This document shows positions 14,253 to 31,121 of a stretch of 44,649 nt of DNA, piece after piece. The DNA is from a virus (lineage: Duplodnaviria; Caudoviricetes), in IMG/VR virus record IMGVR_UViG_3300017754_003785, positions 1 to 44,649 of that record; one strand, given 5' to 3'. How positions within the stretch are numbered: position 1 is the first letter of the stretch; each line of letters opens with the position of its first letter. The notes under the pieces were generated by a model, which searched no databases, had not been told where the DNA came from, and saw nothing but the letters and a program-made list of their open reading frames with translations. The translations under genes were made by a program, and so were the position numbers.

Positions 14253-14257
14253 CGATC

Positions 14258-14319: not shown

Positions 14320-14338
14320 GTAACGAAGGAGAAAGACC

Positions 14339-14593
14339 ATGACGACGTTCGAAGAGTTCAAGGCATCGCGTAAGTACGTCTCGAACCTCGCGCCGTACAC
14401 GAGCGGCTTCGCGGAGTTCGCCGGATACCTCTACCTCGACGCCTTCTATATCGGCGTGCCGAACGAAGGGTCGACCAGCGCTCATTACGAAGTGAGCCTC
14501 GCCGGAGACGACCGGACATTCGGGACCATCGAGGAAGCCGAGCGCTTCCTCTGGGAAGAGTTCGCCGATAGCGAGCTTAACGACGAGAACTAG
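14339..14593 (+). CDS. Hypothetical acidic protein
   Basis: SD after copy 2; its TAG overlaps copy 3. Confidence 0.7.
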   Translation: MTTFEEFKASRKYVSNLAPYTSGFAEFAGYLYLDAFYIGVPNEGSTSAHYEVSLAGDDRTFGTIEEAERFLWEEFADSELNDEN

Positions 14594-14649
14594 GAAGCTC
14601 TAACGGTGAGAGCGGCTGCGGCCGCTCGATCCGCCAGCGCTTCCGCTGG
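14592..14649 (+). ncRNA. Intergenic pseudoknot RNA motif, copy 3
   Basis: Variable hairpin GAGCGGC TGCG GCCGCTC. Confidence 0.8.
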
Positions 14650-14669
14650 ATAACGAAGGAGAGACGACG

Positions 14670-14960
14670 ATGGCTAAGGATTATTCGAAGCGGTCCGAAG
14701 AAGAAGCGAAGACGTTCGAACTGCTCGACGGCTTCTTAGAGGTAAAGGCGAACTGGTCGCCGTCGACCGCGCTCGCGGCTCGGGTCTTCCGGGTTATGTA
14801 TTACGCGATGATCGACATCGATCAGATCAACCGGATCGGAGCGGCACTTAACAACGTCGAGACGGTCGACCTCACCGAAGCGGTCAAAGCACTCCACCAA
14901 GCGAAGGTCCTTCGTTCTCTCGGTCGCGATGGTCGTCGCTACTACGAAGTCAACTACTAG
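14670..14960 (+). CDS. Hypothetical protein
   Basis: SD after copy 3; its TAG overlaps copy 4. Confidence 0.7.
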   Translation: MAKDYSKRSEEEAKTFELLDGFLEVKANWSPSTALAARVFRVMYYAMIDIDQINRIGAALNNVETVDLTEAVKALHQAKVLRSLGRDGRRYYEVNY

Positions 14961-15020
14961 GAAGTTCTAACGGTGAGAGCGGCGCTTCGGTGCCGCTCGA
15001 TCCGCCAGCGCTTCCGCTGG
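14959..15020 (+). ncRNA. Intergenic pseudoknot RNA motif, copy 4
   Basis: 5' strand GGAAGT; hairpin GAGCGGCGC TTCG GTGCCGCTC. Confidence 0.8.
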
Positions 15021-15038
15021 GTAACGAAGGAGACGACG

Positions 15039-15266
15039 ATGGCGAAGACGTATTACACGCTCGTGACGCGAGACGACGATAAGAGCCCGTGGGCGATCCA
15101 CTTCGGCGACTACGACCGCGCGACCGTCGCGGACGAAGCAGACGACCTCTACGACGAAGGGCTCGGCGTTCGCCGGAAGAACCTCAAGATCGTTAAGAGC
15201 GGCGACCGACAGGCCGATATCGACGCGGTGGTTCGTCGCCTTAACGAAGAGGAGAGCGCGCGATGA
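15039..15266 (+). CDS. Hypothetical protein
   Basis: AAGGAG SD; ATG 15039 (MAKTYY...). Confidence 0.7.
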   Translation: MAKTYYTLVTRDDDKSPWAIHFGDYDRATVADEADDLYDEGLGVRRKNLKIVKSGDRQADIDAVVRRLNEEESAR

Positions 15267-15400
15267 CGTTCGATCTGAAAGCGCTATGTGACGCGATACG
15301 GCTCGAATGTGAATTCGCCGCGTCTCGAAAAGGAACCCGGAGCCGACCGATCAAGACGAGACGAGGCTGGTACAATCGGTACGGATATCTGATCGCTTAG
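15263..15400 (+). CDS. Small hypothetical protein (45 aa)
   Basis: ATGA overlap, GAGGAG SD; fills the gap. Confidence 0.45.
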   Translation: MTFDLKALCDAIRLECEFAASRKGTRSRPIKTRRGWYNRYGYLIA

Positions 15401-15404
15401 GAGG

Positions 15405-15605
15405 ATGAACATTATGAACGAACTGTCTCAGGCCATCTACCTTCAGGTCATCTACGTCTTCACCAACGTCTTTCTGGCTCGCTTCAGCAAGAGCGAGATC
15501 GTCAGAGAGTTGAATGTCAGTGACGGCATCGTACGTGAGTTTCATCGCGTGATGAACAAGCGCCACCCCAACAATCCGTGGCTCTACTACGGCACCCGGT
15601 ACTAG
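15405..15605 (+). CDS. Hypothetical protein
   Basis: AGGAGG SD; start could be 15405 or 15414. Confidence 0.6.
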   Translation: MNIMNELSQAIYLQVIYVFTNVFLARFSKSEIVRELNVSDGIVREFHRVMNKRHPNNPWLYYGTRY

Positions 15606-15617
15606 GAGGACCGTCTG

Positions 15618-15713
15618 ATGTGGCTCGCTGTTCAACTACTCTCGCCGTGGATCGCGGCAGCTCTCGTCCTCTGGCTTATCGGAGACCCGGAGAACGACGA
15701 GCGGAACTACTAG
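15618..15713 (+). CDS. Small membrane protein (31 aa)
   Basis: AGGAGG SD; MWLAVQLLSPWIAAALVLWLIGDPENDERNY; its TAG overlaps copy 5. Confidence 0.55.
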   Translation: MWLAVQLLSPWIAAALVLWLIGDPENDERNY

Positions 15714-15769
15714 GAAGCTCTAACGGTGAGAGCGGCTACGGCCGCTCGATCCGCCAGCGCTTCCGCTGG
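15712..15769 (+). ncRNA. Intergenic pseudoknot RNA motif, copy 5
   Basis: Hairpin GAGCGGC TACG GCCGCTC; an extra CGCTC...GAGCG hairpin lies before the SD. Confidence 0.8.
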
Positions 15770-15819
15770 ACGCTCCGATCCCGAGAGGACGAGCGGGTAC
15801 TTCGAAATAGGAGACTACT

Positions 15820-16161
15820 ATGAACGCCAAGAAGAACAACGTCGCCGTCGTCGCCAACGTCGTCAAGGCTTCGGCCGAGAACACGAAGAAGGTCGCGGTC
15901 AAGAAGGTCGCGGTCAAGAAGGTCGCGAAGAAGACGGCGAAGAAGGCCGCGTCGGACAAGGTTATGAAGGCGCGGGCCACCCGCCACGCCGTTAAGGTCG
16001 GCGGCAAGAAGTACGATAGCGCCTGGAGCGCCTTCAAGTCGCTGAAGCTCGGGACCGCCGCCCAGTGTGCCCGGTTTCGCAAGTCGTTGAAGGCGAGCGG
16101 TCGGGCCGTGTTCGAGAACGGCAAGCGTTCCGTTACCTTTCAGATCGTTAAGGAGGCTTAG
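15820..16161 (+). CDS. Histone-like basic protein
   Basis: KKVAVKKVAVKKVAKKTAKK repeats plus a small C-terminal domain. Confidence 0.7.
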   Translation: MNAKKNNVAVVANVVKASAENTKKVAVKKVAVKKVAKKTAKKAASDKVMKARATRHAVKVGGKKYDSAWSAFKSLKLGTAAQCARFRKSLKASGRAVFENGKRSVTFQIVKEA

Positions 16162-16164
16162 TCA

Positions 16165-16677
16165 ATGAAGGAAGTTCGCTTTCAAGACATGTTTCGCTGG
16201 GGGATGAGCCGGGACGTTCCGGCCATCCTTTCTTTTCCATCCGGGCCGATAATCAACCTCGGCTCCGGTCGAAAGGCCCTTCCCTACGAAACGACCAACC
16301 TCGATCTTCCCGATTGGGATGCTCGACGAGATACGATCCCGTTCGGAGACGAAGAAGTGGCGGGAGTGGTCGCTTATCACTTCTTCGAACATCTCGACGG
16401 CTCGACCGCTACGAAAGTCGTCGAGGAAATAAATCGAGTTCTGAAGCCGGGCGGTTCCGCGCTTATCGTGGTGCCGTACTATAATTCGCAACTACAGCAT
16501 CAGAACCTCGATCACAAATCGTCGTGGACGGAAGAGACGTTCAAGAACCTCTTCACCGACACTACATATGATCGGGAAGGCGGACGCATCGACTGGCGCC
16601 TTAAGATCGGTTTCCAATTGATCTGCGGGATCGTCGAGAGAAACATCTGTCTCGCTACGCAACTCGTGAAGCTCTAA
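16165..16677 (+). CDS. Class I SAM-dependent methyltransferase (Methyltransf_11-like)
   Basis: INLGSG, IPFGDE, HFFEHL, RVLKPGG motifs. Confidence 0.8.
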   Translation: MKEVRFQDMFRWGMSRDVPAILSFPSGPIINLGSGRKALPYETTNLDLPDWDARRDTIPFGDEEVAGVVAYHFFEHLDGSTATKVVEEINRVLKPGGSALIVVPYYNSQLQHQNLDHKSSWTEETFKNLFTDTTYDREGGRIDWRLKIGFQLICGIVERNICLATQLVKL

Positions 16678-16729
16678 CGGTGAGAGCCCCGACGCGATCC
16701 GGGGCTCGATCCGCCAGCGCTTCCGCTGG
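16668..16729 (+). ncRNA. Intergenic pseudoknot RNA motif, copy 6
   Basis: Begins GAAGCTCTAA inside the methyltransferase gene end; hairpin GAGCCCCG ACGCGATC CGGGGCTC. Confidence 0.8.
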
Positions 16730-16743
16730 GATAGGAGAGACGA

Positions 16744-17091
16744 ATGTATGAACGCTATAAGACGACGAGCGGTTCGATCACGGTCAAGAACGGCGACGAG
16801 GGACCGCGCCACGACCCGTACTCCTTCGTCGAGTACACGGTAGAGAGGAAAGGAAAGAGGAAGACGACGATCCATCTCGGCCTCGTCGTCTGGTGCAAGG
16901 TCGAAGGACGGCCGGTCAAGAAGACGATGAACGAGGCGAAGGCGCGCGAGCGGTTCGCTCGATACGTCGGATGGCCTCTCGAAGAAGTCGAGCGTGCCGT
17001 CGGCCTTGCCGACCGGAGGCGCGAGCGGTCATACGACCTTTCCGGTATCCGCGCGGCCGAACGCGCTGCCGGATGGGACGCTTCGCCGTAG
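16744..17091 (+). CDS. Hypothetical protein
   Basis: AGGAG SD after copy 6. Confidence 0.7.
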   Translation: MYERYKTTSGSITVKNGDEGPRHDPYSFVEYTVERKGKRKTTIHLGLVVWCKVEGRPVKKTMNEAKARERFARYVGWPLEEVERAVGLADRRRERSYDLSGIRAAERAAGWDASP

Positions 17092-17151
17092 GAAGCTCTA
17101 ACGGTGAGAGCCTCGATGGTACGAGGCTCGATCCGCCAGCGCTTCCGCTGG
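17090..17151 (+). ncRNA. Intergenic pseudoknot RNA motif, copy 7
   Basis: Hairpin GAGCCTCG ATGGTA CGAGGCTC. Confidence 0.8.
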
Positions 17152-17166
17152 GATAAGGAGAGATAG

Positions 17167-18138
17167 ATGACGAACCAACAGCAGATGCCGACCGAGAAAG
17201 TGATCGAGCGTATCAAGAAGCTCCTCGCCCTCGCCGATAAGAACAAGAACTCGTCGGCCGCCGAAGCCGAGAGCGCTGCGGCGAAGGTACAGGAACTCCT
17301 TCAGGACTACGGCCTGTCGCTCGCGCAGGTCACGGCTTCGGAGCGGAACGCCGACGCGATGACCGACCGCGAGAAGGCCGAGACGGATCGGCGCGCGATG
17401 TACAAGTGGCAGCGCGAGCTTATGGCCGCTCTCGCGAAGGGGAACTTCTGCATCCACTTCGTGCAGGAGAAGCTCGTCGAGCGGACGCTCAAGAGCCGCC
17501 GACATCTCGGGCTCAAGAAGTCGACCTTCCACGTTCTGATCGGGCGGACGATCAACATCCAAGGAACGATTGCCCTTTACGACTATCTCGTCAAGTCGAT
17601 TGGGCGCGAGGCCGCGCGTCACGGATACGACCACGGGACCTCCGACAACGCGCTCTTCTTTGACGGCGCGGTCTCGCGTCTCTCTGAACGTCTTTTCGCC
17701 CAGCGCGCGAAGCGGGAGCGCGAAGAAGCCGAAGCGGAGGCCGCTCGTCGGAAGGCGACCGCCGCGACGGGTAGCGCTACTCCCGGCACGGGCCTTGTCC
17801 TCCTCTCGGATGTCTACGGCTCGGAAGAAGACCTCAACGCCGATCTTCGCTATGGCCTCCCGGCCGGAACGACGGCGGCCCGGAGGAAAGGCCGCGAGGC
17901 GTCTGAGCGCGAGCGTCGCCTCGTCGCTGAACGCCTCGAAAGCGAAGGCGTCGATTGGGTCGAAGCGTTCTATCGGAGCCACGGCTATAGCGAAGAGGAC
18001 GCGAAGAAGGCCGCTCGCGAATACTACAAGAAGAACGCTCGCGAGAACGCGAAGAACGCGAAGAAGGGAGAAGCGTTCAGCGTCGGACGGGTTGCCGGCG
18101 ACAAGATCGGCCTCGACCTCCAAGTCGAGAAGAAGTGA
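17167..18138 (+). CDS. DUF2786 domain-containing protein
   Basis: IERIKKLLALA...EAESAAAKVQELLQDYGLS N-terminal motif. Confidence 0.75.
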   Translation: MTNQQQMPTEKVIERIKKLLALADKNKNSSAAEAESAAAKVQELLQDYGLSLAQVTASERNADAMTDREKAETDRRAMYKWQRELMAALAKGNFCIHFVQEKLVERTLKSRRHLGLKKSTFHVLIGRTINIQGTIALYDYLVKSIGREAARHGYDHGTSDNALFFDGAVSRLSERLFAQRAKREREEAEAEAARRKATAATGSATPGTGLVLLSDVYGSEEDLNADLRYGLPAGTTAARRKGREASERERRLVAERLESEGVDWVEAFYRSHGYSEEDAKKAAREYYKKNARENAKNAKKGEAFSVGRVAGDKIGLDLQVEKK

Positions 18139-18199
18139 GGAAGCTCTAACGGTGAGAGCCCCGACGATCCGGGGCTCGATCCGCCAGCGCTTCCGCTGG
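18138..18199 (+). ncRNA. Intergenic pseudoknot RNA motif, copy 8
   Basis: Hairpin GAGCCCCG ACGATC CGGGGCTC. Confidence 0.8.
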
Positions 18200-18218
18200 A
18201 ATAGAAAGGACGTAGTCA

Positions 18219-18467
18219 ATGGCCATCCAGTTGTACGATCTGTCGGTCGCCCCGAAGATCGATAAGAACGACCTCTCGTTTGTGATGCGCGCTCCGCTGC
18301 CGGTGATCGCGCGCTACCTTCGCTTACACATCGACGCGGTTCGTCGCATCGAACGGGAGACGGAGAACACGACACTCCCCTGCGTCCTCTACGGCCCGAG
18401 CGGGACGGACGAAGTACACGTCGTCTGGCGGCCGATCTATTCGCTTTCGACCACCGCCGTTCGATAG
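18219..18467 (+). CDS. Hypothetical protein
   Basis: AAGGA SD after copy 8. Confidence 0.65.
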   Translation: MAIQLYDLSVAPKIDKNDLSFVMRAPLPVIARYLRLHIDAVRRIERETENTTLPCVLYGPSGTDEVHVVWRPIYSLSTTAVR

Positions 18468-18479
18468 GAGGACACGATT

Positions 18480-19106
18480 ATGGGAAAGCGTTTTTCGTTC
18501 GACATCGCCAAGGCGATCCCCGCCGCGTGGGACTTCCTCTGGGCCGATAACCTTAAGGATCGCGCGAAGCAGGAGAAGGACCACCCGGATGGCGACTTCG
18601 GAAAGTACGGTCGCCGCTGGTACACGCGGACGTTCTATCTCTGCGCCGCCGACATCGTTCGGCAGGTTCGCTCCTTCGCTTACGAGACCTCGCACGGCCT
18701 TGAGTGGGGGACCAACGGCGTGCGCGGCCCCGACTACGGCATCCGGATTTCCGGCGACCTCGAAAGTGCCGTCAGAGATTGGCTCCTTCGGACGAAGGAC
18801 GGTCATAACTTCAGTCGCGGCCATATCTCCGGTATGCGCTTCCGACCGAAGGGAGCGCCGCTCGGGCCTTCGGAGGAGGATACGATAGAGAAGAAGGCGA
18901 AGCCGAAGCGGCCAGCGCCGATCCACTTCAGCCGTAGTGGTTTCGGTCGTCCGCTCTGCACGGCAGTATCGAGCGGGAACCGGTTCTCGTTCCGGCAGTC
19001 GAAGGCGCGCGTCCGGTCTAAGTGGGAGGAGGTCAACTGCAAGCGGTGTCTCGGGCTCAAGGCTCACGCCCTCGCTCAGCCTCGCGCTAACGAAAAAGCT
19101 CTCTAG
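18480..19106 (+). CDS. Hypothetical protein (C-terminal H/C metal-binding motif)
   Basis: AGGAGG SD; H...LC...VNCKRC. Confidence 0.7.
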   Translation: MGKRFSFDIAKAIPAAWDFLWADNLKDRAKQEKDHPDGDFGKYGRRWYTRTFYLCAADIVRQVRSFAYETSHGLEWGTNGVRGPDYGIRISGDLESAVRDWLLRTKDGHNFSRGHISGMRFRPKGAPLGPSEEDTIEKKAKPKRPAPIHFSRSGFGRPLCTAVSSGNRFSFRQSKARVRSKWEEVNCKRCLGLKAHALAQPRANEKAL

Positions 19107-19166
19107 GAAGCTCTAACGGTGAGAGCGGCGCTTCGGTGCCGCTCGATCCGCCAGCGCTTCCGCTGG
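19105..19166 (+). ncRNA. Intergenic pseudoknot RNA motif, copy 9
   Basis: Hairpin identical to that of copy 4. Confidence 0.8.
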
Positions 19167-19182
19167 TATAGGAGAGAACTCG

Positions 19183-19593
19183 ATGACGAAATTCAAGATA
19201 GGCGATAAGGTCCGCGTCAAGCTCGCTGGCGGGAAAGGCGTCGGAGAAACGCTCTGGGAAATCGTTCGCATCGTTCCCGGACGGAACCAGACGGCGTGTT
19301 ATATACGAGAGGCCGGGACCAATCACGCATCGCAACGGTTCGACACGTCGCTACTCGTTATCGAACCGCCGAGCGATCTTCGGTTGCTCGTCGCGAAGTT
19401 CTTGGCGACGTACTGGGAAGAGGGCGATGGACATCCGCCGCCGGCATTCATTCGTGAAGCCGAGGAAGCGGTCAAAGACCTCACTCCCGAAGAACTCGCG
19501 AAGGCGCAGGTCAGGCGCCATTTCCGAACCACCGAAGAGGTAGAAGGCATCAGCCCGATCTATTATCGCCTCGCGGTCTATACGAAGAACTAG
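19183..19593 (+). CDS. Hypothetical protein (KOW/SH3-like N-terminus)
   Basis: KFKIGDKVRVK start; SD after copy 9. Confidence 0.65.
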   Translation: MTKFKIGDKVRVKLAGGKGVGETLWEIVRIVPGRNQTACYIREAGTNHASQRFDTSLLVIEPPSDLRLLVAKFLATYWEEGDGHPPPAFIREAEEAVKDLTPEELAKAQVRRHFRTTEEVEGISPIYYRLAVYTKN

Positions 19594-19653
19594 AAAGCCC
19601 TAACGGTGAGAGCGGCGCTCCGGCTCCGCTCGATCCGCCAGCGCTTTCGCTGG
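19592..19653 (+). ncRNA. Intergenic pseudoknot RNA motif, copy 10 (compensatory variant)
   Basis: AGAAAGCCCTAACGGTGA-GAGCGG CGCTCCGGCT CCGCTC-GATCCG-CCAGCGCTTTCGCTGG. Confidence 0.8.
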
Positions 19654-19666
19654 AGCAGGAGAAGAG

Positions 19667-19942
19667 ATGAATACCCTACAGAAGAAAGTCGAAAAACTCC
19701 GCAAGCAGATGCGGCTCCGTCCTCTCACGAGTCACGGCGTTCGCTTCGAGATCGGACGGAAGGCGATCCAGCTTCGCGAAGAAAAGCGCGAGGAAGAGGC
19801 TCGGGCTCTTGAGAACCTCCTGACGGACGACGACTACATTCGTCTTCGTCTTCGGAGGAATATGGCCATCCAGATCGCCGACGAGGCGGCCATCCAACTG
19901 ATGACCTCGTTCCCCGAGGCGTACCCGGAAAGGATCGCATAG
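19667..19942 (+). CDS. Hypothetical protein
   Basis: AGGAG SD after copy 10. Confidence 0.65.
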   Translation: MNTLQKKVEKLRKQMRLRPLTSHGVRFEIGRKAIQLREEKREEEARALENLLTDDDYIRLRLRRNMAIQIADEAAIQLMTSFPEAYPERIA

Positions 19943-20012
19943 ATGCGGTGGATCGTCGCCGTCCTCATCGTCCTTCTCGTCTCGTCTTCCTTCACCGATG
20001 GAGAGTCCTCCG

Positions 20013-21101
20013 ATGGTCGCCAAGAAGAAATCGTCATCGACACCTAAGAAGACGGCGGCTCCGGTCGTCGCTTCCGAACCGACTTTGTCCGATACTCCCG
20101 TTGGCCTCAGGGCTTGCGAAGAGTGCGGAGCCCCGGCCGGTTCCTACCATCACCCGGATTGCGTCTGGGTCATACCGAAGTTCCTCCGGTCGAACAGACC
20201 GAAGAAGAGCCCCGAAGAACTGAAGCGTCTGCTCAATACCGAGCGCGAATGGATTATGCCGAAAGCGAAGGAGTTTCAAATGCCTATCGATAAGATCACG
20301 CCGCAGGACCCGATGAAGCCAGTCCAAGTCAATCTCGTTACCGAAGCCGGTACGAGGTCGCAGTTATTCGATAACCTCGAAGCGTTCAACGACTGGTACA
20401 CGCCCGAACTCTACGTCCTTAGCGGGCAGATCGCCGACGCGAGCATCACGATCGTGACCGCCGAGACCATCGAGGTCAGGAAGAAGGCGGCTCCCGAGTC
20501 GGCCGAGGTCCGGAAGAAGGCGGCGCAGGTTGTTCGCGAGCGCGAGAGACAAGCGAAACGAGACGCGAAGGCGAAGAGGAAAGCCGAGCGCGAGGCGAAT
20601 AAGACCGCGCGAGCGAACGGCGAGACGACGCCGCGAGCGAAGAAGGAAGGCGGTGGGATTTCCGGGAGCATCGCCGTGACGGTCGGCGGGAAGTCTTACG
20701 GGACGATCAAGACCGCGCTGAAGGCTCTCGGCATCGCGGACTCCGAACGTAAGGCGCTTCGCGCTCTTCTCATCAAGGATGGGAAGGCGACCCTGAAGGG
20801 ACACGCCTTTACGCTCCGCGACGGTCTCCCGGAGAAGGCCGCCCCGGCTGCTACTCCTCCGGCCGCGACGAAGACGGAGCCGGAGAAGAAGACGCCGCGA
20901 CCGCAGATCGTGACGAACGTCGGCATCAAGAAGGCCGAACCGAAGAAGGCGAGTCCGAAGGCGACACCGAAGAAGGTAGCGGCGAAGAAGGCGAGTCCGA
21001 AGGCGAGCCCGAAGGCGGCCCCAAAGAAGGCCGCTCCGAAGGCCGCTCCGAAGGCCGCTCCGAAGAAGGTAGCGGCGAAGAAGAAGGCGGCCAAGAAGTG
21101 A
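20013..21101 (+). CDS. Basic protein with histone H1-like C-terminal tail
   Basis: PKKAAPKAAPKAAPKK repeats; N-terminal CEEC...HHPDC. Confidence 0.7.
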   Translation: MVAKKKSSSTPKKTAAPVVASEPTLSDTPVGLRACEECGAPAGSYHHPDCVWVIPKFLRSNRPKKSPEELKRLLNTEREWIMPKAKEFQMPIDKITPQDPMKPVQVNLVTEAGTRSQLFDNLEAFNDWYTPELYVLSGQIADASITIVTAETIEVRKKAAPESAEVRKKAAQVVRERERQAKRDAKAKRKAEREANKTARANGETTPRAKKEGGGISGSIAVTVGGKSYGTIKTALKALGIADSERKALRALLIKDGKATLKGHAFTLRDGLPEKAAPAATPPAATKTEPEKKTPRPQIVTNVGIKKAEPKKASPKATPKKVAAKKASPKASPKAAPKKAAPKAAPKAAPKKVAAKKKAAKK

Positions 21102-21361
21102 GCCGCAAGATCATCGGTATCCATAGCCCCACGGTCCCCTATCTCGGTAGGGGATCGAAGCGGCGGATACTCCTAGCCGTTCTCGTCGAAGACGATGGGA
21201 CGAATACTCAGGTTGCCTATCAAGGGATAGTCGACCACGAAGATGGAGAGGAGGTTGGCAGCGCTGCTGTAGCCGTATCGCTCCGGGGCTCGAAACTGAA
21301 GTACGAAGAAGCCCAGCGGCATTGGCCGTCCATCGAACGGAAGAGGTATCAGCACCAATGA
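21098..21361 (+). CDS. Hypothetical protein
   Basis: GTGA overlap. Confidence 0.55.
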   Translation: MSRKIIGIHSPTVPYLGRGSKRRILLAVLVEDDGTNTQVAYQGIVDHEDGEEVGSAAVAVSLRGSKLKYEEAQRHWPSIERKRYQHQ

Positions 21362-21609
21362 ACCTCCGAAGACTTGACCGGCTATCGGTCCCGGCCGTTC
21401 GCTACGAGTTCGTAGTGAGCGGAGCCGGCACGTTCCCTTTCGATATGCTCTCTCACGACCGGGCTTACCCGGCGAATATCGAAGAGGCGTCGAAGCTGAA
21501 CGAATACGGACCAGAGCGCCGATACGTCAAGCTCGTATCGGCGTCTTCGGTCCGCGAGTGGACTCCGCATCAAGCGGGATGGAAGACGTTCGGATGGAGG
21601 GTTGAATGA
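21358..21609 (+). CDS. Hypothetical protein
   Basis: ATGA overlap; GAGTFPFDMLSHDRAYP...WKTFGWRV. Confidence 0.6.
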   Translation: MNLRRLDRLSVPAVRYEFVVSGAGTFPFDMLSHDRAYPANIEEASKLNEYGPERRYVKLVSASSVREWTPHQAGWKTFGWRVE

Positions 21610-21968
21610 ACGACGCTGGCGTCGTCAAGGCGTACCGATCCGAAATCTTCGGCCGGATATACTGGAGGATCGTTCGAACTCCGGTCGGTCCGTATCGGTT
21701 CACTCTCGAAGAGAACGAAGACCGCGTTTGGTCTTCGAAGAAGGAACCGGCTTTCTTCAACGACATCGATATGGCGAAGAAGGAAGTCGAGAAACGGATC
21801 ATCGTCCAAGTCGCTTCGGCTTGTGACGGTATGGAGGTCCATCGAGACCAGTGGGACCTCATTCGCGAGCTTCTATCGGAGAAGCGCATCGCCGATATCG
21901 GATCGCCGCGCGGTCCCGATCAGGCTTGGAAGCGGATCGAACCGCTCCCGAGCGACGAAGAAGGATAA
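21606..21968 (+). CDS. Hypothetical protein
   Basis: ATGA overlap, GGAGG SD. Confidence 0.6.
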   Translation: MNDAGVVKAYRSEIFGRIYWRIVRTPVGPYRFTLEENEDRVWSSKKEPAFFNDIDMAKKEVEKRIIVQVASACDGMEVHRDQWDLIRELLSEKRIADIGSPRGPDQAWKRIEPLPSDEEG

Positions 21969-22032
21969 TCGAAACGCTCCTCCGGGAGCGTCCGCCGGAT
22001 ACGGCCACCCGGCGCTGACGAGATAGGCCATA
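21968..22032 (+). ncRNA. Hammerhead ribozyme, type II
   Basis: ATC-GAAA-CGCTCC TCCG GGAGCG-TC^-CGCCGG ATACGGCCAC CCGGCG-CTGACGA-GAT: complete core, all three stems, GUC triplet (cut after 21992), and a GGCC pseudoknot between loop I and the 3' tail. Confidence 0.9.
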
Positions 22033-22051
22033 GGAAGAGCAGGAGAACGAA

Positions 22052-23185
22052 ATGCAAAAGGGAATTAGCCTCGCCGACTTCGCGCGCAAGATCGAGTTCA
22101 ACCGCGATGCCCGGAAGGATTTCATCGTCGAGACCCGCAAGGGCCTCGCTATGCAGATCGACGACTATGAAGAGCCGCCCATCGGGAACGCGAAGACGCC
22201 GATCAAGAAGCGTCGGCCGGTTCTCGAACTCTACGGGACGCGGGATGCCGAGCGCTTCCCGATGCTCGATCTCGTCCACAACCAGCTCGGAACCTACGTC
22301 GGCATCCCGGCGAAGTATTACGACCGGATGCTGGAGAAGCAGCCCGACCTGTTGGCGATGAACGTCAACTCGTGGCTCAAGCACGACCTCGAACGCGAGG
22401 CCGACAAGCGGATGCTCCGCACCCTCCACGGGAACGCTCGCGGCTTCCTCTCGAACCGCTACAGCCGGATCGATAACCACGAGATCGCCGACGTTGCGCT
22501 TCCGATCCTCGCGGAGCTTCCGAACGTCAAGATCGTTTCGTGCGAGGTCACGGACAAGCGGATGTACATCCAAGCCGTCACGCCCGCTATCGAGGGCGAG
22601 ATCAAGAAGGGTGACGTGGTCCAGGCCGGAGTCCTGATCACGAACTCCGAAGTCGGCTGCGGCTCGGTCTCGGTCTCGTCGGTGATCTGGCGACTGATCT
22701 GCCTCAACGGGATGAAGGGCATGGACCGCTTCCGCGCGAACCACGTCGGCCGGAAGATCGACGACAACGAAGACCTCTGGTCGGACTCGACCCGGAAGCT
22801 CGACGATAAGCTCGTTCTCTCGAAGGTCCGCGACATGGTCAAGTCGGCGGTCGACGAGAACCGCTTCCGGAAGCAGATTGAGCACGCCCAGATGTTGACC
22901 GGCATCAAGGTCGAGAAGGACCCGCAGGCCGCCGTCGTCGTTCTCTCGCAGAAGGTCGGCGTGTCGGACGAAGAGTCGTCCGGCATCCTCAAGTCGCTGA
23001 TCGAAGGCGGTGACCTCTCCGCTTGGGGTCTCCTGAACGCCGTTACGCATCAGGCTCATACGGCGAAGAACTACGACCGCGCGGTCGAGTTCGAGGAAGC
23101 CGGTGGTCAGATGATGAACTGGGGCAAGGCCGACTGGAAGCAGGTCCTCGAAGCGACCGCGCTCGACGTTAAGAAGGCCGCCTGA
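22052..23185 (+). CDS. DUF932 domain-containing protein
   Basis: RGFLSNRYSRIDN, ITNSEVG.GS, RLICLNGM and HVG motifs. Confidence 0.8.
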   Translation: MQKGISLADFARKIEFNRDARKDFIVETRKGLAMQIDDYEEPPIGNAKTPIKKRRPVLELYGTRDAERFPMLDLVHNQLGTYVGIPAKYYDRMLEKQPDLLAMNVNSWLKHDLEREADKRMLRTLHGNARGFLSNRYSRIDNHEIADVALPILAELPNVKIVSCEVTDKRMYIQAVTPAIEGEIKKGDVVQAGVLITNSEVGCGSVSVSSVIWRLICLNGMKGMDRFRANHVGRKIDDNEDLWSDSTRKLDDKLVLSKVRDMVKSAVDENRFRKQIEHAQMLTGIKVEKDPQAAVVVLSQKVGVSDEESSGILKSLIEGGDLSAWGLLNAVTHQAHTAKNYDRAVEFEEAGGQMMNWGKADWKQVLEATALDVKKAA

Positions 23186-23246
23186 TCGTCGAACTCTAGA
23201 AGCGCGGGTGGTCGAGTACCGATCACCCGCAGGGAAAGGAAAGCGT

Positions 23247-23459
23247 ATGAAGTTTCATCCAATCACGGAACTCGTTATCCAATCAGATAAACTCGCGTCG
23301 GCTATCCTCATCGTCGAAAGGAGTCAACCGGAAGGGATACGGAAGGAAGCGCTTCTTCGAGTCCTATATTCCGATGCGACCTCGCTTGGCGAGGAAGTCG
23401 ATAGGCTCCTCGTCCCATACGTCGGCGCGATCCAGCGCGAACGGAAGAACGGAGCCTGA
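23247..23459 (+). CDS. Hypothetical protein
   Basis: AAGGA SD, ATG 23247. Confidence 0.55.
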   Translation: MKFHPITELVIQSDKLASAILIVERSQPEGIRKEALLRVLYSDATSLGEEVDRLLVPYVGAIQRERKNGA

Positions 23460-23462
23460 CCG

Positions 23463-23675
23463 ATGACACAAGAGCGAAACCTGTATCCCGTAACAATTCG
23501 AAAGGCCGATAGCGGCGTGGAGTTGACGACATTCTACTTGCTATCGAAAGAGGATCGCGGCGCGTTCATTCTGAACCTTCCTTCTGTTTTTCGCGTTACG
23601 GAGCAGAACGCTCCTATCGTTGGGCAGTCGGCCGAAGAGGCTATGGCTGACCTGTTCTCGCTGTGGGGGACCTGA
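23463..23675 (+). CDS. Hypothetical protein
   Basis: Tightly packed ORF with GGAG SD. Confidence 0.55.
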   Translation: MTQERNLYPVTIRKADSGVELTTFYLLSKEDRGAFILNLPSVFRVTEQNAPIVGQSAEEAMADLFSLWGT

Positions 23676-23678
23676 CCG

Positions 23679-23897
23679 ATGGCGCAAGACGTTTCTAGAA
23701 TGACGCTCGAACCTCATCGCTCCGGGAGGTTCGAGGAAATCAAAATCGGAGAAGCCTTCTATATGAGGGGCGACTTCTGGGTTAAGACCGGGGCGAACTC
23801 CGGTCACGAACTCGTCGGGCTCTTCGATGTCGATCAGGAGAAGTGCCTCATCGATCCGAAGGCTCGGATCAACACGGTTATCATCGGGAGGAGTTAG
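23679..23897 (+). CDS. Hypothetical protein
   Basis: Tightly packed ORF. Confidence 0.55.
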   Translation: MAQDVSRMTLEPHRSGRFEEIKIGEAFYMRGDFWVKTGANSGHELVGLFDVDQEKCLIDPKARINTVIIGRS

Positions 23898-24323
23898 ATG
23901 ACGCGGATCAACGCCGGCATCCATCCGAAGCGTCTTCATCGAAGACATCTGATAGCGGAGTACCGGGAACTCCCGATGGTTCCCGCCGCGCTTCGGCGTT
24001 CTCTTCGAACGGCTACTCCGGCCGAGGTCGTCGCGCGGATACCGAAGACCTTCACGCTAGGGAAGGGGCACGTCCTCTTCTTCTTCGACAAGCTCCGTTA
24101 TCTCCAGCGGAGGTATGCCGCGCTTCAGCGCGAGATGATCAGGCGCGGATACCAACCGGACGAAAGCCGCGATCCCGGCTTCGGCGGTCGTATCCCGCCA
24201 CGCTTCTTCGGTGACTGGAAGGAGACGGTTTCCGCAGAGGAGATCGTTCGAAAGCGTATCGCCGCGAGGATCGCGGAGAAGCCGCATCTGTATAAGGAGG
24301 GAAGAGTGATATGGAAGACCTAG
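23898..24323 (+). CDS. denV: Pyrimidine-dimer DNA glycosylase / endonuclease V
   Basis: MTRIN, HLIAEYRELP, FTLGKGHVLFF.DKL.YL..RY..L..EM..RG match the T4 DenV pattern. Confidence 0.92.
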   Translation: MTRINAGIHPKRLHRRHLIAEYRELPMVPAALRRSLRTATPAEVVARIPKTFTLGKGHVLFFFDKLRYLQRRYAALQREMIRRGYQPDESRDPGFGGRIPPRFFGDWKETVSAEEIVRKRIAARIAEKPHLYKEGRVIWKT

Positions 24324-25570
24324 CAGAACGCTTCGTCTCATCGACATACGGCTTCGCGAAAGCACTCGACGTAACCGGGTCGACGAAGAAGACGCTCGAA
24401 GCCTCGATGGCCGAGTACCGGGTCCTGATGATGAAGGCGAAGAAGTTCCGTCTCGACGACGACTTCGTTGAGCTCTCGGCTCGCGCCTCCGTCGTTACTC
24501 CGGAAGACGCTCTCGCTCGCGTCCAAGGAACGATCCTTCCGTATGACGTCGTATGGATGGAGTATAACCCGAGGGTGAAGGTCGCCGCTTCCATAGCGAT
24601 GAGCGAGGCCCCGGATCGTCCCGTATCGGATCGCGTTCGGGATATCGCCGCGCTCCTCCTAGTCCGCGATAGGAAGAACGCGAACGCCTTCTCTATTCAG
24701 CTCATCGGACAGGCCGAGATCAGGAACTCTCGCGGGATCGACACGACGCTATATGTCGTCCACCCGATGGCGATTGTCTTCGACGCCGATGGACAGGGCG
24801 ATATCAACCGGTCGGTGATCGGCGGTATCGAGTCGTGGCGTATGACCCACGGCGGGCAAGTAGACGTTACCGGAAAGGAAGGGCTATCGGCCGAAGACCT
24901 CTCCGCAAGCGTCTGGGGATACGTTCGCGGCAACGGACCGAGAGGCTTTAGCGGTCCGAAAGACTTCGTCGGCCTCTCGTACTCCGTCCCGTCTTATCTT
25001 ACGAGGCACGCGGCTATCGCCTATAGCGATGCGTTCCGAAGACTGATGGTCAAGGTAAACGAGGCTCCCGGAGTTCGGGGCGTTAGTCGCGATAGTATCC
25101 TCGATCAGTTCGCGACCGACGTTGCGGAGAACGCCGGGATGACGCGCTGGATTTCGACCGTCCTCTGTATGCTCTCGGAGGTCCCTATCGTCGTAAGCGA
25201 ACCGCGAACCGCGACCGGCTCCCGGATACGTTCGGCGAACGGGACCGGGAGGCCGGGCTTCGAAAAGCACGTCGTGACCCTGAACCTCCCAAGGGTCAAG
25301 AGCCGCGTTCGCTACGTCGCGAGGAAGATCGCTGGCGGCGGGAGGAAGAAACGTCACGAGGTCCAATCGCACTGGCGTACTTACCTCACCGACGTAGGAC
25401 CGATGTGCATCCATCGGTGGACTTATTCCGAAGACCTCGATCACCGGACGTGCGAGACGTGCGGTAGTTTCTCGACGAAGATCAAGAACCACCTTCGCGG
25501 CGACGAGTCGCTAGGCTGGGCGACGAGAGAAGTACGGATAACCGCTAGGAAGAAGGAGAACGCGCTATGA
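24311..25570 (+). CDS. Hypothetical protein
   Basis: 419-aa ORF; C-terminal RHEVQSHWR...HLRGD motif. Confidence 0.7.
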   Translation: MEDLAERFVSSTYGFAKALDVTGSTKKTLEASMAEYRVLMMKAKKFRLDDDFVELSARASVVTPEDALARVQGTILPYDVVWMEYNPRVKVAASIAMSEAPDRPVSDRVRDIAALLLVRDRKNANAFSIQLIGQAEIRNSRGIDTTLYVVHPMAIVFDADGQGDINRSVIGGIESWRMTHGGQVDVTGKEGLSAEDLSASVWGYVRGNGPRGFSGPKDFVGLSYSVPSYLTRHAAIAYSDAFRRLMVKVNEAPGVRGVSRDSILDQFATDVAENAGMTRWISTVLCMLSEVPIVVSEPRTATGSRIRSANGTGRPGFEKHVVTLNLPRVKSRVRYVARKIAGGGRKKRHEVQSHWRTYLTDVGPMCIHRWTYSEDLDHRTCETCGSFSTKIKNHLRGDESLGWATREVRITARKKENAL

Positions 25571-25842
25571 GTATGGCAGACGCGATGCTAAAGACACTCG
25601 CCGTCGTTTCGGAAAACCCGAAGGCCGATCTATCGAAGTTCCGCGAGGTCGCGACGAGGCTTCGCGTTGGCGGCTTCATCGTCGAGAACGAAGACGGATC
25701 GACGACGGTCACGGAAGAAGGGATCGCGGTATGTCTAGCGAACGACATCCCGACCCCCGAGCAGTTCGAGTTCAGGCGTCGTAAGGCGCGCGCAATCGAA
25801 ATCCTTTCATCGAAGGAGAACGGCAATGCCGACCGCAGCTAA
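25567..25842 (+). CDS. Hypothetical protein
   Basis: ATGA overlap, SD. Confidence 0.6.
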   Translation: MSMADAMLKTLAVVSENPKADLSKFREVATRLRVGGFIVENEDGSTTVTEEGIAVCLANDIPTPEQFEFRRRKARAIEILSSKENGNADRS

Positions 25843-26131
25843 GAAGAAGACGGCGACGAAGACGAAGGCCCCGGTCATCCCGTACTCGCCGGGAGAGGCT
25901 AAGGCACTCGACGCGCTAAAGGCCGAAACGGATCGTCGCCTATCGTCGGTTCAGCTTATCGCGAAGGTCTACGGGGAAGCTCCTCCGTTCCACGCTAGAC
26001 AGTCGATCATGGGGACTATGCGGTCGCTCTCCCGTAAGATCGACGAGAACGGCGAGCCGTTCGTTCTTCGGAAGTCGGAAAGGGCCGGTCCCGTTCCGAC
26101 GCAATTCTGGTTGGAGGATCGTATCGGATGA
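25826..26131 (+). CDS. Putative winged-helix DNA-binding protein (paralog of 8828-9109)
   Basis: PYS..E...R.L..K...N.EPF...K..R.GP....WLE.R shared with 8828-9109. Confidence 0.6.
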   Translation: MPTAAKKKTATKTKAPVIPYSPGEAKALDALKAETDRRLSSVQLIAKVYGEAPPFHARQSIMGTMRSLSRKIDENGEPFVLRKSERAGPVPTQFWLEDRIG

Positions 26132-26352
26132 GCATCGGATTGACCCACGACGAGATCGTCGAGCTGACGAGGATCATCGAGGCCCACGTGAAAGGGAGCG
26201 ATTGGGTATTGATCGTTCAAGCGGATACCCATATAGCAACAATCGCGAACATCGAAGAAGAGAGCGCAAACGAACTCATCGCCGACGCGCTCGAACTTCG
26301 TCTCAACGAGGAAGCCGAGGAAGTGATCGAGATCGATAGGAAGGATAACTGA
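26128..26352 (+). CDS. Hypothetical acidic protein
   Basis: ATGA overlap, GGAGG SD. Confidence 0.55.
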   Translation: MSIGLTHDEIVELTRIIEAHVKGSDWVLIVQADTHIATIANIEEESANELIADALELRLNEEAEEVIEIDRKDN

Positions 26353-26353
26353 C

Positions 26354-26722
26354 ATGGCCGACGTAATAGGCCCGACGAGTACGATGCCGGGACATCGACA
26401 TAATCTCCCCGAAGGCGCGACCTGCGACATTCACCCGGATAGACCGGCCGTCGCTCGCGTTCAGGGAGAGACGGACTCGATGGGAGCCGAGCTGAACGAC
26501 CTCTGCTCCGAATGCCTTGCGGCGGAACGCGAAGCACGACTCGAAGGACGGAAGGGAAACTGCGACTGGTGTAATCTCCCGTTCGACGATCTTTGCGAGA
26601 CCCGCGATTATGAAGAGGGAGTACGAGGTCCGATTTATCTCGTCTGCCGGCCCTGTAGAAAGCGCGCCAACGACGCGGCCATAGAAGAGCTTGAGCGTCA
26701 CGACGAAGAAAGGGGACTCTGA
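26354..26722 (+). CDS. Cys-rich putative zinc-binding protein
   Basis: CDIH, CSEC, CDWC and CRPC motifs. Confidence 0.65.
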   Translation: MADVIGPTSTMPGHRHNLPEGATCDIHPDRPAVARVQGETDSMGAELNDLCSECLAAEREARLEGRKGNCDWCNLPFDDLCETRDYEEGVRGPIYLVCRPCRKRANDAAIEELERHDEERGL

Positions 26723-26723
26723 T

Positions 26724-28208
26724 ATGGCGGTTTATGTTCCGAAGGTCCCGCTCTGGTCTCACCAGAAGGAAGGACTCAAGAAGATGCGAGGTAGAGCGTC
26801 CTTCGCTCTCCTCATGGCGATGAGAACCGGGAAGACGCCGCTCTCGCTCGCCGACTTCGGTCAGATCGAACTCGATGGAGACGCTAACGACTTCTTCGGT
26901 ATCGCTCCGGCTGGCGTCTATCATACGTGGAACACGGCCTTCGACGATCATCTATCCGACGATCTTCGAAGGAGGCTCCTCACCTACACGTGGTCGGCCT
27001 CCGACCGTGGGAAGAAGACGAGGGCTCGCGAACTCGATGACTTCATGTACGAGACGAACCGACCGCGCGCTCTTCTTATGAACGTCGAAGCGATGTCCGG
27101 TGTCGACCGGGCTCGCGAACTCGCTCTGAAGTTCGCCTATCAACGGAAGTCGTATGGGCTCATCGACGAGTCGACGAAGATCAAAGGACCGGACGCGGAT
27201 CGGGCGAAGTTCATCGTTGACGAACTCGGGCCGCGTTTCGACTATCGCCGTATTCTCTCCGGCCTTCCGACACCGCGCTCGCCTCTCGACGCCTATATGC
27301 AGTTCCGCTTTCTCGACGAGTCGATACTCGGCTTCAAATCCTTCCACGGGATGAAGGCGCGCTACGCGATCATGGGGAAGATGAGCGTCAACCGAGGCTT
27401 CTGGGATCACGCTTCGGGTCGAGTCAGACAGATGGAGCGTCCAAGGATCGTCAGTTATCGCGACGTTGAAGAGGTCCACGAGAAGATCGCCCCTCATTCC
27501 CATCGCGTTCTTCTCGAAGACTGCTACGACCTACCGGCGAAGATGTATTCCTTCCGCGATGTCGAGTGGCATCCGGAACAGAAGCGCATCTATCAGGAGC
27601 TGAAGGACTTCGCTATCGCGCGTCTCGACGAGATGAACTTCGTGACGGTCTCTCAGGTCCTGACGGAAATGCTTCGTCTCCATCAGGTTCTCTGTGGCCA
27701 TACGAAATCGGACGACGGCGCTATATACGAGGTCCCCGAGTACCGGACCCGCGAACTGCTCGACATCCTCGAAGAGTATGACGGGAAGGCCGTGATTTGG
27801 GTAGCCTACGACTTCAACGTCCATAGCGTGGTCAAGGCGATATCCAATCGCTTCGGAACTCCGGTCGCCCGCTTCTGGGGTGGGAACCGGAAGACGCGCG
27901 AAGCGGAAGAGCGGATGTTTCAGAACGATCCGGCCTGCCGGCATATGGTCGCGACGGCTGCGGCCGGAGGTATGGGAAGAATGTGGGCGGTCGCCGATCT
28001 AACGATCTATTTCGGGAATACGCAGAAGCTCGAAGATCGCGTTCAGAGCGAAGAGCGTCCGCAAGCGGTGAACAAGACGCGAAGCGTCGGCTACGTCGAC
28101 CTCCGAGTTCCGGGAACCGTTGACGATAAGCTGATCAAGACGCTTCGCAATCGTCTCGACCTCGCCTCTATCGTAACCGGAGACAGCTATAGGGAGTGGC
28201 TTGTATGA
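26724..28208 (+). CDS. SNF2-family helicase/ATPase
   Basis: MRTGKT (Walker A), IDEST (Walker B variant), LSGLP, RLHQV and QSEER motifs. Confidence 0.85.
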   Translation: MAVYVPKVPLWSHQKEGLKKMRGRASFALLMAMRTGKTPLSLADFGQIELDGDANDFFGIAPAGVYHTWNTAFDDHLSDDLRRRLLTYTWSASDRGKKTRARELDDFMYETNRPRALLMNVEAMSGVDRARELALKFAYQRKSYGLIDESTKIKGPDADRAKFIVDELGPRFDYRRILSGLPTPRSPLDAYMQFRFLDESILGFKSFHGMKARYAIMGKMSVNRGFWDHASGRVRQMERPRIVSYRDVEEVHEKIAPHSHRVLLEDCYDLPAKMYSFRDVEWHPEQKRIYQELKDFAIARLDEMNFVTVSQVLTEMLRLHQVLCGHTKSDDGAIYEVPEYRTRELLDILEEYDGKAVIWVAYDFNVHSVVKAISNRFGTPVARFWGGNRKTREAEERMFQNDPACRHMVATAAAGGMGRMWAVADLTIYFGNTQKLEDRVQSEERPQAVNKTRSVGYVDLRVPGTVDDKLIKTLRNRLDLASIVTGDSYREWLV

Positions 28209-28387
28209 AGACCTGTAGAACGTGCGAACGTCCTCTCGATGACCCGAAGGACCCGACGACGAACGACTGCGGCTCGGACTGTCTTCGCTGCGCCGCTCTC
28301 CTTGGGGATCGCGAGGCCCGCGAAGCTCTCGCGAAGATCGTCGAGGAATGGCCGGAGGCCCCGACGTGGGTAGGGTATCCGAAATGA
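28205..28387 (+). CDS. Small Cys-rich protein
   Basis: CRTC...CGSDCLRC. Confidence 0.55.
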   Translation: MKTCRTCERPLDDPKDPTTNDCGSDCLRCAALLGDREAREALAKIVEEWPEAPTWVGYPK

Positions 28388-28692
28388 GCCGCCGCGATTT
28401 CCTGACCGGGCCGGAACTCGGTATGGCCTATCACCGGTTTGAGAAGATCGTCTCGGGCGATCCGTTCTGGGATCGCGCCGACTATAAGCGCGCCGTCCTC
28501 TTCTGGTGCTCGGACCTTCGCATCGTAAGGAACGAATATCGGTTCGTTACCGGGCACGTGATTTATGAAATCCGAACGCCGGGTGATCGCCGGGTAGCGT
28601 TCGGCGAAAGTCAAGAGGCCGCGTGGAAGCTTGCGGCCGCCGTCATACTCGATCATCTGACCAAGACGACGAAGGAGAGAGCAAATGGCTAA
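28384..28692 (+). CDS. Hypothetical protein
   Basis: ATGA overlap. Confidence 0.55.
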   Translation: MSRRDFLTGPELGMAYHRFEKIVSGDPFWDRADYKRAVLFWCSDLRIVRNEYRFVTGHVIYEIRTPGDRRVAFGESQEAAWKLAAAVILDHLTKTTKERANG

Positions 28693-28936
28693 GGATACGA
28701 ACAAGCTCGACGTGGGCGTAACGGTCTGGTCGTCAACGACGAAGACCTTCCGGATCGCGGCGGAAGATATCGAGACCATCGTTAAGGATCGTCTCGGATA
28801 CGGCGACCGGTCGACGTTCGACGTTACCTTCGATTGGAAGGAGACACAGGGAATGACCTCCGCCCTGATCATGACCGTCAAGGAGCCGACGAAAACCGAA
28901 GAACTCGTCGTCAAGCTCGAAGGGAAAACGAAATGA
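28685..28936 (+). CDS. Hypothetical protein
   Basis: AAGGAG SD. Confidence 0.6.
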   Translation: MAKDTNKLDVGVTVWSSTTKTFRIAAEDIETIVKDRLGYGDRSTFDVTFDWKETQGMTSALIMTVKEPTKTEELVVKLEGKTK

Positions 28937-29151
28937 GCGTCAGGGCCGCCGTCTACATCGGAGACATCGAAGAGCTTCGCGGGAAGACCGCGCTGATCCG
29001 GAACGACGTAGGAGTCCCGACGGGTCGGGTAGAAGCGATGTTCGACGATGAAGACCTCGTCGATACGCGAGGCGCAAAGACGAAGTGGCTCGGTCTCGAA
29101 TGGCATCGTTTCCCGGAGAGCGACTTTGAACCAATCCGAAACGCCGAATGA
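28933..29151 (+). CDS. Hypothetical protein
   Basis: ATGA overlap. Confidence 0.55.
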   Translation: MSVRAAVYIGDIEELRGKTALIRNDVGVPTGRVEAMFDDEDLVDTRGAKTKWLGLEWHRFPESDFEPIRNAE

Positions 29152-29512
29152 GGTCAGGCTCTATCTCGATAAGAACGGCGACGAATACGCGACGGTCGAT
29201 GCAAGCCTATACGCGAAGATCGTCGCGCTCGGCCCGTGGTACATCCACGCGGCAAGGAAGTGTCTTTACGTCCGCTCTTGGAGGAGCGGTCATAGGCGCG
29301 AGTATCTTCACCACGTCGTTCAGCGACTGCTAGGCCGAAGACGACCTAGCGAAGAACACGTCGTGAGACACCTCAACGGGGATACGTTCGTCAACACGGG
29401 CGGCAATCTCCGTTGGGGAACGAAGAGTAAGAACAGGAAGGACGTACCCTATGTCGAAAGGAACAGGAAAAATGGCGAAGAAAAAGGCGACCCCGAAGGC
29501 GAGCGTTCGTAG
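29048..29512 (+). CDS. HNH endonuclease
   Basis: YLHHVV...VVRHLNGD..VN...NLRWGT..KN; start uncertain. Confidence 0.75.
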   Translation: MKTSSIREAQRRSGSVSNGIVSRRATLNQSETPNEVRLYLDKNGDEYATVDASLYAKIVALGPWYIHAARKCLYVRSWRSGHRREYLHHVVQRLLGRRRPSEEHVVRHLNGDTFVNTGGNLRWGTKSKNRKDVPYVERNRKNGEEKGDPEGERS

Positions 29513-31097: not shown

Positions 31098-31121
31098 TCC
31101 GACCCGGCCGAACCGCTAAAA

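Follow-up and report, generated by a model that had tools for sequence, protein, structure and literature searches.

The junction and its setting

The short interval between a small gene and a gene of the DUF932 family raises the question of whether a self-cleaving RNA is encoded there, what such an RNA would do to the message that carries it, and whether its presence bears on a different element that occurs in ten copies at gene junctions of the same region. The window, meaning the whole stretch of DNA that was analysed, is a 44.6-kb phage record (44,649 nt; Caudoviricetes; IMGVR_UViG_3300017754_003785) encoding a DnaE-type polymerase, genes similar to Pam3 gp33/gp34 and long-tail genes. From its layout, the run of + strand genes at 14058-31097, mostly small and without assigned function, looks like the early region. 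No close cultured relative of the phage was found, the nearest being distant (DnaE about 35%, DUF932 at most 40%), and a blastn comparison of the early region with cultured phages returned short chance matches only. A far closer relative is the locus L082, 99.4% identical over 21 kb and carrying the same hammerhead letter for letter. Early genes are shuffled within this group of related phages.

The + strand region is flanked by two G+C-rich, ORF-poor stretches with many short inverted repeats (13200-13970 and 31100-31620), and a 29-nt inverted pair connects 13360-13388 with 31489-31517. These stretches may possibly represent a genome end, an origin or terminators. Histone-like repeats rich in Lys and Ala were observed in the proteins of 8456-8812, 15820-16161 and 19998-21101, and genes similar to these come after junction elements in the relatives.

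A type II hammerhead before the DUF932 gene

The features of the junction are as follows.

21606-21968, + strand: upstream ORF of 120 aa, its UAA stop overlapping the first base of the ribozyme
21968-22032, + strand: type II hammerhead, whole element (RF02276 at 21967-22032)
21968-21970, + strand: 5' strand of stem II, pairing with 22022-22024 (3 bp)
21971-21974, + strand: core G12 A13 A14 A15.1 (GAAA)
21975-21990, + strand: stem III hairpin, 6 bp (21975-21980 with 21985-21990), UCCG loop
21990-21992, + strand: GUC triplet, with the cut predicted between 21992 and 21993 from the hammerhead consensus
21993-22014, + strand: stem I hairpin, six G-C pairs (21993-21998 with 22009-22014), with competing local folds
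22015-22021, + strand: core C3 U4 G5 A6 C7 G8 A9 (CUGACGA)
22026-22032, + strand: 3' tail, forming a pseudoknot with loop I at 22000-22006 (6/7 pairs)
22041-22045, + strand: Shine-Dalgarno-like AGGAG, by sequence, outside the ribozyme fold
22052-23185, + strand: DUF932-family gene, 377 aa (PF06067, 29.8 bits, cut-off 23; phrog_1362)

The element was confirmed, by sequence and structure, as a complete type II hammerhead ribozyme with predicted cleavage. The original prediction, which had been made from the letters of the DNA, proposed a search with the Rfam hammerhead models, and this search agreed with it: cmscan placed RF02276 (Hammerhead_II) on the + strand with 46.7 bits (E 1.4e-6) against a gathering score of 37, and it was the sole Rfam match in the window at E<=1. 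A descriptor of the core plus three stems matched once in the window and once in total over 200 dinucleotide shuffles. The core proposed originally (CUGACGA, GAAA and GUC) proved to be canonical at every base when compared with RF02276 (C3 U4 G5 A6 N7 G8 A9 at 22015-22021, G12 A13 A14 A15.1 at 21971-21974, U16.1 H17 at 21991-21992), and the pairs flanking it are intact, namely G22022-C21970 (10.1-11.1), C21993-G22014 (1.1-2.1) and A21974-U21991 (15.1-16.1). The UCCG-capped stem III, the 6-bp stem I and the 3-bp open stem II can likewise be read from the sequence as first described, with stems I and III closed and stem II open, as type II requires. The element does begin on the last base of the upstream stop codon, and the distance of about 20 nt given to the DUF932 start agrees with an ATG 19 nt beyond the tail. 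Only the pairing between loop I and the tail had to be amended: the pseudoknot is present, but a C-A mismatch (C22002-A22030) had been missed, so that four contiguous pairs are followed by the mismatch and then by two pairs, not by seven in a row, and loop I is 10 nt long (21999-22008). This complementarity supplies the at least four loop I-tail pairs of a type II hammerhead.

Folding with ViennaRNA gave -21.0 kcal/mol for the nested hammerhead fold and -25.6 kcal/mol for another, preferred fold, the energies of the pseudoknot and core lying outside the model. Pair probabilities of stem III were 0.96-1.0 in three of four contexts and 0.08 in one, and those of stem I ranged from 0.07 to 0.94 by context, reaching 0.94 when just transcribed.

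Upstream of the hammerhead, four ORFs at 19998-21968 overlap one another by 4 nt, and the terminator scan found no + strand terminator-like site between 19845 and 23983, so the hammerhead is probably transcribed within a longer message. The scan as a whole (23 sites against 18.6 expected) is informative solely as the absence of a + site near the junction, and a promoter scan (1 site against 4.1 expected) holds little information. Searches of Pfam and PHROG with the 120-aa upstream ORF gave no match.

Hammerheads in related phages

A relaxed type II descriptor applied to 2.1 Mb of related loci gave 26 distinct matches, all on the DUF932 strand, and 0 matches in three block shuffles of the same 2.1 Mb. 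The set of DUF932 relatives consisted of 160 rows of loci, some duplicated, with 112 distinct 5' regions. A hammerhead core was found in nine of these (L082 and eight others) and was absent in 103, so the gene does not need one. When L082 is set aside, 8/111 other 5' regions have a hammerhead; L090 alone among the eight reaches the Rfam cut-off, the rest being descriptor or pattern matches. The L018 hammerhead scored 31.3 bits. In L147 (104-2920), six near-identical type II hammerheads occupy six junctions, one at each, and span about the distance from stop codon to ribosome-binding site, and none of them reaches the cut-off. The Rfam model misses many phage type II hammerheads that look real. 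A hammerhead in L214 (38.5 bits) lies before a much more distant DUF932 gene and has an almost identical pseudoknot.

The pseudoknot itself is supported across the relatives. At least four Watson-Crick pairs between loop I and tail were found in 17/28 type II matches, against 8.4 +/- 2.0 with tails swapped (0/2000), in a sample whose rows are not independent, six coming from one phage and one match being doubtful; the sequence of the pseudoknot varies among these matches while the 17 keep their pairs.

The 103 hammerhead-free DUF932 5' regions were compared with positions inside genes. Perfect stems of at least 9 bp were present in 14/103 of them and in 0/309 in-gene controls. This measure was used in place of a looser one, an arm of 17 pairs or more, which gave no separation (upstream 46/103, in-gene 130/336). 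Some hammerhead-free regions resemble promoters by eye. Hammerheads, long hairpins and promoter-like sequences in the relatives thus indicate that the slot 5' of DUF932 is filled in several ways.

Several further elements were observed in these loci. Long irregular hairpins lie 5' of DUF932 in L003, L085, L131, L027, L014, L009, L016, L092 and others, some with an internal loop like that of the ten-copy motif described below. Type II hammerheads with an extra base between core and stem II were seen in L083 (6674, 7535, 7875), L141 (5288) and L151 (618), and can be repeated within one phage. L052 has two type I hammerheads (9269 and 11071), one of them directly 3' of DUF932.

Predicted action of the hammerhead

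To judge from its sequence and position, the type II hammerhead quite likely cuts the early polycistronic mRNA after C21992, which would put DUF932 on its own message. The mRNA would be severed between C21992 and 21993, freeing the DUF932 part. Hammerhead chemistry leaves a 2',3'-cyclic phosphate on the upstream product and a 5'-OH on the downstream product. The upstream product would keep its stop codon and 24 further bases and end in the stem III hairpin with the cyclic phosphate, and the DUF932 product would have a 59-nt leader before the ATG, opening with the 5'-OH and stem I. In bacterial decay, such ends resist 5'-end-dependent attack. With structure expected at both new ends, the most likely effect of the cut is to give the upstream and DUF932 parts stabilities of their own rather than to destroy them. 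The general mechanism of hammerhead cleavage is described in a 2019 review (PMC6765202).

It is unlikely, though not negligible, that the hammerhead is genuine but slow or conditional, being mostly misfolded or held open by ribosomes at the stop codon and cutting only when translation of the upstream gene is low. The nested hammerhead fold is less stable than its competitor by 4.6 kcal/mol, stem II shares a base with the stop codon, where a terminating ribosome would be expected to cover its 5' strand, and the pseudoknot has its one mismatch, in an area where small changes cost orders of magnitude in rate (PMC3088659). The energy model, however, holds neither pseudoknot nor core, stem I is highly probable at the moment of transcription, and many related hammerheads likewise overlap a stop codon, an arrangement that is therefore evidently tolerated. 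A present-day role would be absent altogether if the hammerhead were the leftover of a mobile DUF932 cassette, as its patchy occurrence before DUF932 (9/112) and the shuffled early genes of the group might suggest. This is very improbable: core, stems and pseudoknot have all stayed intact, two distant DUF932 subfamilies both have hammerheads before them, and the L082 copy has 0 differences against 20 in the adjoining DUF932 gene, 65 nt being too short for significance. Cleavage of the early message by an active hammerhead remains the preferred reading and, as far as the sequences of the relatives indicate, the hammerhead is one of several interchangeable junction elements in this phage group, alongside long hairpins and the ten-copy motif.

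The ten-copy junction motif

The ten-copy junction motif was confirmed as real in the window, at the following positions.

13975-14036, + strand: copy 1, in the leader that precedes the first gene of the early region
14259-14319, + strand: copy 2
14593-14649, + strand: copy 3; in L024 a hammerhead precedes the ortholog of the following gene
14960-15020, + strand: copy 4
15713-15769, + strand: copy 5
16667-16729, + strand: copy 6, containing the upstream stop codon
17091-17151, + strand: copy 7, before a DUF2786 gene
18139-18199, + strand: copy 8; in L202 a hammerhead precedes the ortholog of the following gene
19106-19166, + strand: copy 9; in L202 a hammerhead follows the ortholog of the previous gene
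19593-19653, + strand: copy 10, whose 5' helix shows a compensatory change from G-C to A-U

The first base of the motif is the last base of a UAG stop in 6/10 window copies, and a purine-rich ribosome-binding site comes after the motif, as in the hammerhead slot. Between copy 5 and its ribosome-binding site there is an extra hairpin-like stretch (15770-15800), unlike the other nine copies.

The motif is roughly 60 nt long. Its 5' strand, about 6 nt in length, is joined by a 5-nt linker to a 3-bp stem that carries a variable inner hairpin; a 5-bp hairpin follows directly, and its loop can pair with the 5' strand to form a pseudoknot. This loop is 6 nt long in 27/35 copies from 9 groups, and its six positions pair with the 5' strand in 33, 31, 33, 33, 32 and 26 of the 35, while the next two positions beyond the loop edge pair in 9 and 11. 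Of the cells in 26 distinct strand-loop combinations, 87% pair, compared with 71% after shuffling (0/5000). A pair-count tool found 12 pairs with two-sided changes against 6.3 in shuffles for 26 copies, which are related and whose alignment was fitted to nested stems. Four of the five pairs of the last hairpin are invariant in this 26-copy alignment, the search patterns having partly required that hairpin. A pattern leaving it free gave 13 stretches representing 8 distinct copies, all with the hairpin, and two new copies among them show compensatory changes in it. In the L337 motif, the conserved linker U is changed to C together with a change of an A-U pair to G-C. Many G-U pairs favour an RNA of the + strand.

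In 34/35 copies, the second and third positions of the linker could pair with the A-G of the 3' hairpin. The predicted minimum is a long-hairpin state of 13-22 pairs with several internal loops, which is more stable than the two-hairpin state in 28/35 copies, typically by about 2 kcal/mol. With this pairing option and two nested states close in energy, a pseudoknot with triples and a two-state switch are both possible. Outside the helices, only a U and an A are near-conserved, each with an exception, and there is no conserved unpaired G.

A comparison with L082 showed that 30/64 differences of the interval 13.9-23.3 kb fall between or in copies 8 and 9 (18143-19144), and that the copy 9 hairpin of L082 resembles a chimera of the copy 7 and copy 8 hairpins. 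These observations suggest that copies have recombined with one another and that gene cassettes have been exchanged.

Hammerheads and motifs at orthologous junctions

The original prediction had held that the hammerhead raises the odds of a similar job for the ten-copy motif, and this is supported by swaps at orthologous junctions in related phages. The gene at 18219 is preceded by motif copy 8 in the window and, for its L202 ortholog (58.5%, E 3e-35), by a hammerhead that has its full core but scores below cut-off (26.5 bits). The family of the gene at 18480 is flanked by two hammerheads in L202 (63.9%) and by a pair of motifs in L095 (39.9%), while in the window there is a motif only behind the gene. 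The gene at 14670 follows copy 3, and its L024 ortholog (38.5%, E 8e-15) follows a 43.4-bit hammerhead. A gene behind a motif in L095 has orthologs behind hammerheads in L147 (42%) and L029 (33%), and the position directly 3' of DUF932 holds a hammerhead in L090, L151 and L052 and a motif in L095. Motif and hammerhead co-occur in the window, L095, G003 and G005; RF02276 gave no match in nine other motif-bearing records (G001, G006, G007, G008, G022-G026), several of which are fragments. No motif was found in the DUF932 5' slot of the relatives, so that the swap is not seen at this junction.

Related phages thus place hammerheads at junctions where the window phage has the motif, and the motif may do a similar job. 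The step from same position to similar job is strengthened by this replacement, but the further step to self-cleavage is weakened, because long perfect hairpins fill the same kind of slot (the 14/103 against 0/309 above) and sharing a position therefore does not prove the same chemistry.

Possible functions of the motif

We suggest only tentatively that the motif is a small self-cleaving ribozyme of a new class, and that at least 13 phage groups use it and hammerheads interchangeably. Early mRNA would then be cut into single-gene messages by an RNA of roughly 60 nt with a single pseudoknot, a 6-bp loop helix and a fixed 5-nt linker holding a conserved U and A, and the window phage would have eleven self-cutting sites in 8 kb. 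Such a class is favoured by the swaps and the small size, by a linker of fixed length and an outer hairpin that varies, and by occurrence over a wide range of base composition; the small number of conserved unpaired bases, with no G among them, speaks against it, as do the long hairpins in the same kind of slot and the failure of tests for pistol, twister and HDV-like ribozymes. Instead of cutting itself, the motif might be the substrate of a host nuclease such as RNase III, with the long irregular hairpin forming first and the 3' hairpin then refolding to cap the new message. Sites of RNase III comprise about two turns of mostly paired helix. Such a role is conceivable, at less than even chances, and would agree with the long-hairpin state as predicted minimum and the more stable one in most copies, with the complementarity of linker and 3' hairpin, and with the perfect stems of the DUF932 5' slot. 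The 5' helix, however, stops at the loop edge as if it coexisted with the 3' hairpin (26-33/35 copies paired inside, 9 and 11/35 just outside), the linker length is fixed, and the motif persists from 34% to 67% G+C and is more constrained than is usual for RNase III sites.

A compact pseudoknot with strong covariation and few conserved unpaired bases might also act uncut, by blocking exonucleases and so protecting the 5' end of a gene or the 3' end of the gene upstream, with the same outcome as a ribozyme. Copy 1, before the first early gene, would fit protection of a 5' end, but the pairing option between linker and 3' hairpin is left unexplained; we view exonuclease blocking as possible rather than probable. 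Other roles for the motif seem doubtful.

Membership of known classes was considered separately. The 6-bp loop pseudoknot of pistol is present in the motif, and the conserved G40, G42 and A32/G33, P2 and the G-U cut site are absent. For twister, P4/L4, two pseudoknots and the conserved loop bases, at least ten in number, were not found. HDV-like ribozymes have a P1 stem and an invariant catalytic C in J4/2; the motif has no P1 equivalent, and the C before its conserved U is replaced by U in six copies and by G in one of the 35. Comparison with integron attC sites, kink-turns, permuted HDV and type III antitoxin repeats showed the defining bases or layout to be absent.

Self-cleavage would make the motif a new ribozyme class. 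Without it, the motif still stands as a phage RNA family that is supported by covariation and unmatched in Rfam, and possibly one that blocks bacterial exonucleases. As a hammerhead, a long hairpin or an uncatalogued pseudoknot can stand before the same gene in different phages, these elements could be swapped in one reporter, which could show whether the junction needs a cut, a protected end, or both.

Distribution and novelty of the motif

Rfam gave no match for the motif, whether in the window (E<=1), in L095 and L100 (at cut-off) or in two further sets of 7 and 8 loci (E<=2). With a descriptor and with models derived from the motif, 10 copies were identified in L095 and 4 in L100, and pattern scans added G001, G003, G004/G008, G005, G006, G007, L337, L340 and L381, as well as an A+T-rich group around L355. 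By flanking sequence the motif spans about 13 phage groups, on contigs of 34% to 67% G+C. Strict patterns gave 0 stretches in viral_contigs. The pattern scan of cellular genome_contigs gave 53 matches (best 29.4 bits) and no convincing copy, since in the six alignments examined either the inner hairpin or the 5' part was not intact. Weak elements resembling the motif begin at the DUF932 stop in L022 (11045-11114), L120 (1259-1308) and L131 (1885-1943). They are possibly distant or reduced members and were not counted; the L022 element scored 20.9 bits with model R2 and was missed by model R3.

Among the papers searched, none was found to describe the motif, which may already be listed in the Weinberg 2017 supplement (PMC5737381) or in Fremin 2023; searching with motif strings returned unrelated papers only among the matches listed. 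No literature linking DUF932 to ribozymes was found and, judged by title and start of abstract, no DUF932 paper dealt with RNA. Fremin 2023 gives 7 candidate structures within 25 bp of DUF932 genes (PMC10690425).

Comparison with known systems

The early region of phage T7 offers a parallel for the motif: RNase III processing at repeated hairpins, including before the first gene, splits its polycistronic mRNA. Both these sites and the motif lie at early-gene junctions, the motif adding a conserved second hairpin and a pseudoknot. Pistol (PMC6154101) is similar in having a short hairpin whose loop takes part in a six-base-pair pseudoknot, and in lying near phage genes, but as described there it has P2 and G40/G42, whereas the motif lacks P2 and has U, G, C or A as the base after the pseudoknot strand. 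Twister resembles the long-hairpin view of the motif, one strand of an internal loop being in a pseudoknot and the other carrying a conserved U and A (PMC5408937); unlike twister as set out in that paper, the motif is without P4/L4, a second pseudoknot, ten conserved loop bases or a conserved unpaired G. Twister itself was recognised through shared neighbouring genes (PMC6765202).

The original prediction had placed the hammerhead among the pseudoknotted type II hammerheads known in phages, and it does match the kind reported by Perreault et al. (2011; RF02276; PMC3088659), sharing with them the open stem II, closed stems I and III, the canonical core and the loop I-tail pseudoknot. The setting is also shared, as their prophage examples lie between phage genes, with clusters flanking single genes; hammerheads from prophage clusters were shown to cleave both in vitro and in E. 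coli, and processing into single-gene mRNAs was proposed (PMC3088659). The 2019 review treats such a role in mRNA processing as still unproven and the purpose of bacterial and phage ribozymes as open (PMC6765202). There is no difference of kind from the cases in PMC3088659; here one hammerhead shares an operon with ten copies of a different element. The hammerhead of the window is therefore an ordinary one, of a known kind in a known setting, because type II hammerheads between phage genes are known (PMC3088659) and eight of the 111 other DUF932 5' regions have one; its value is as a built-in positive control for the motif.
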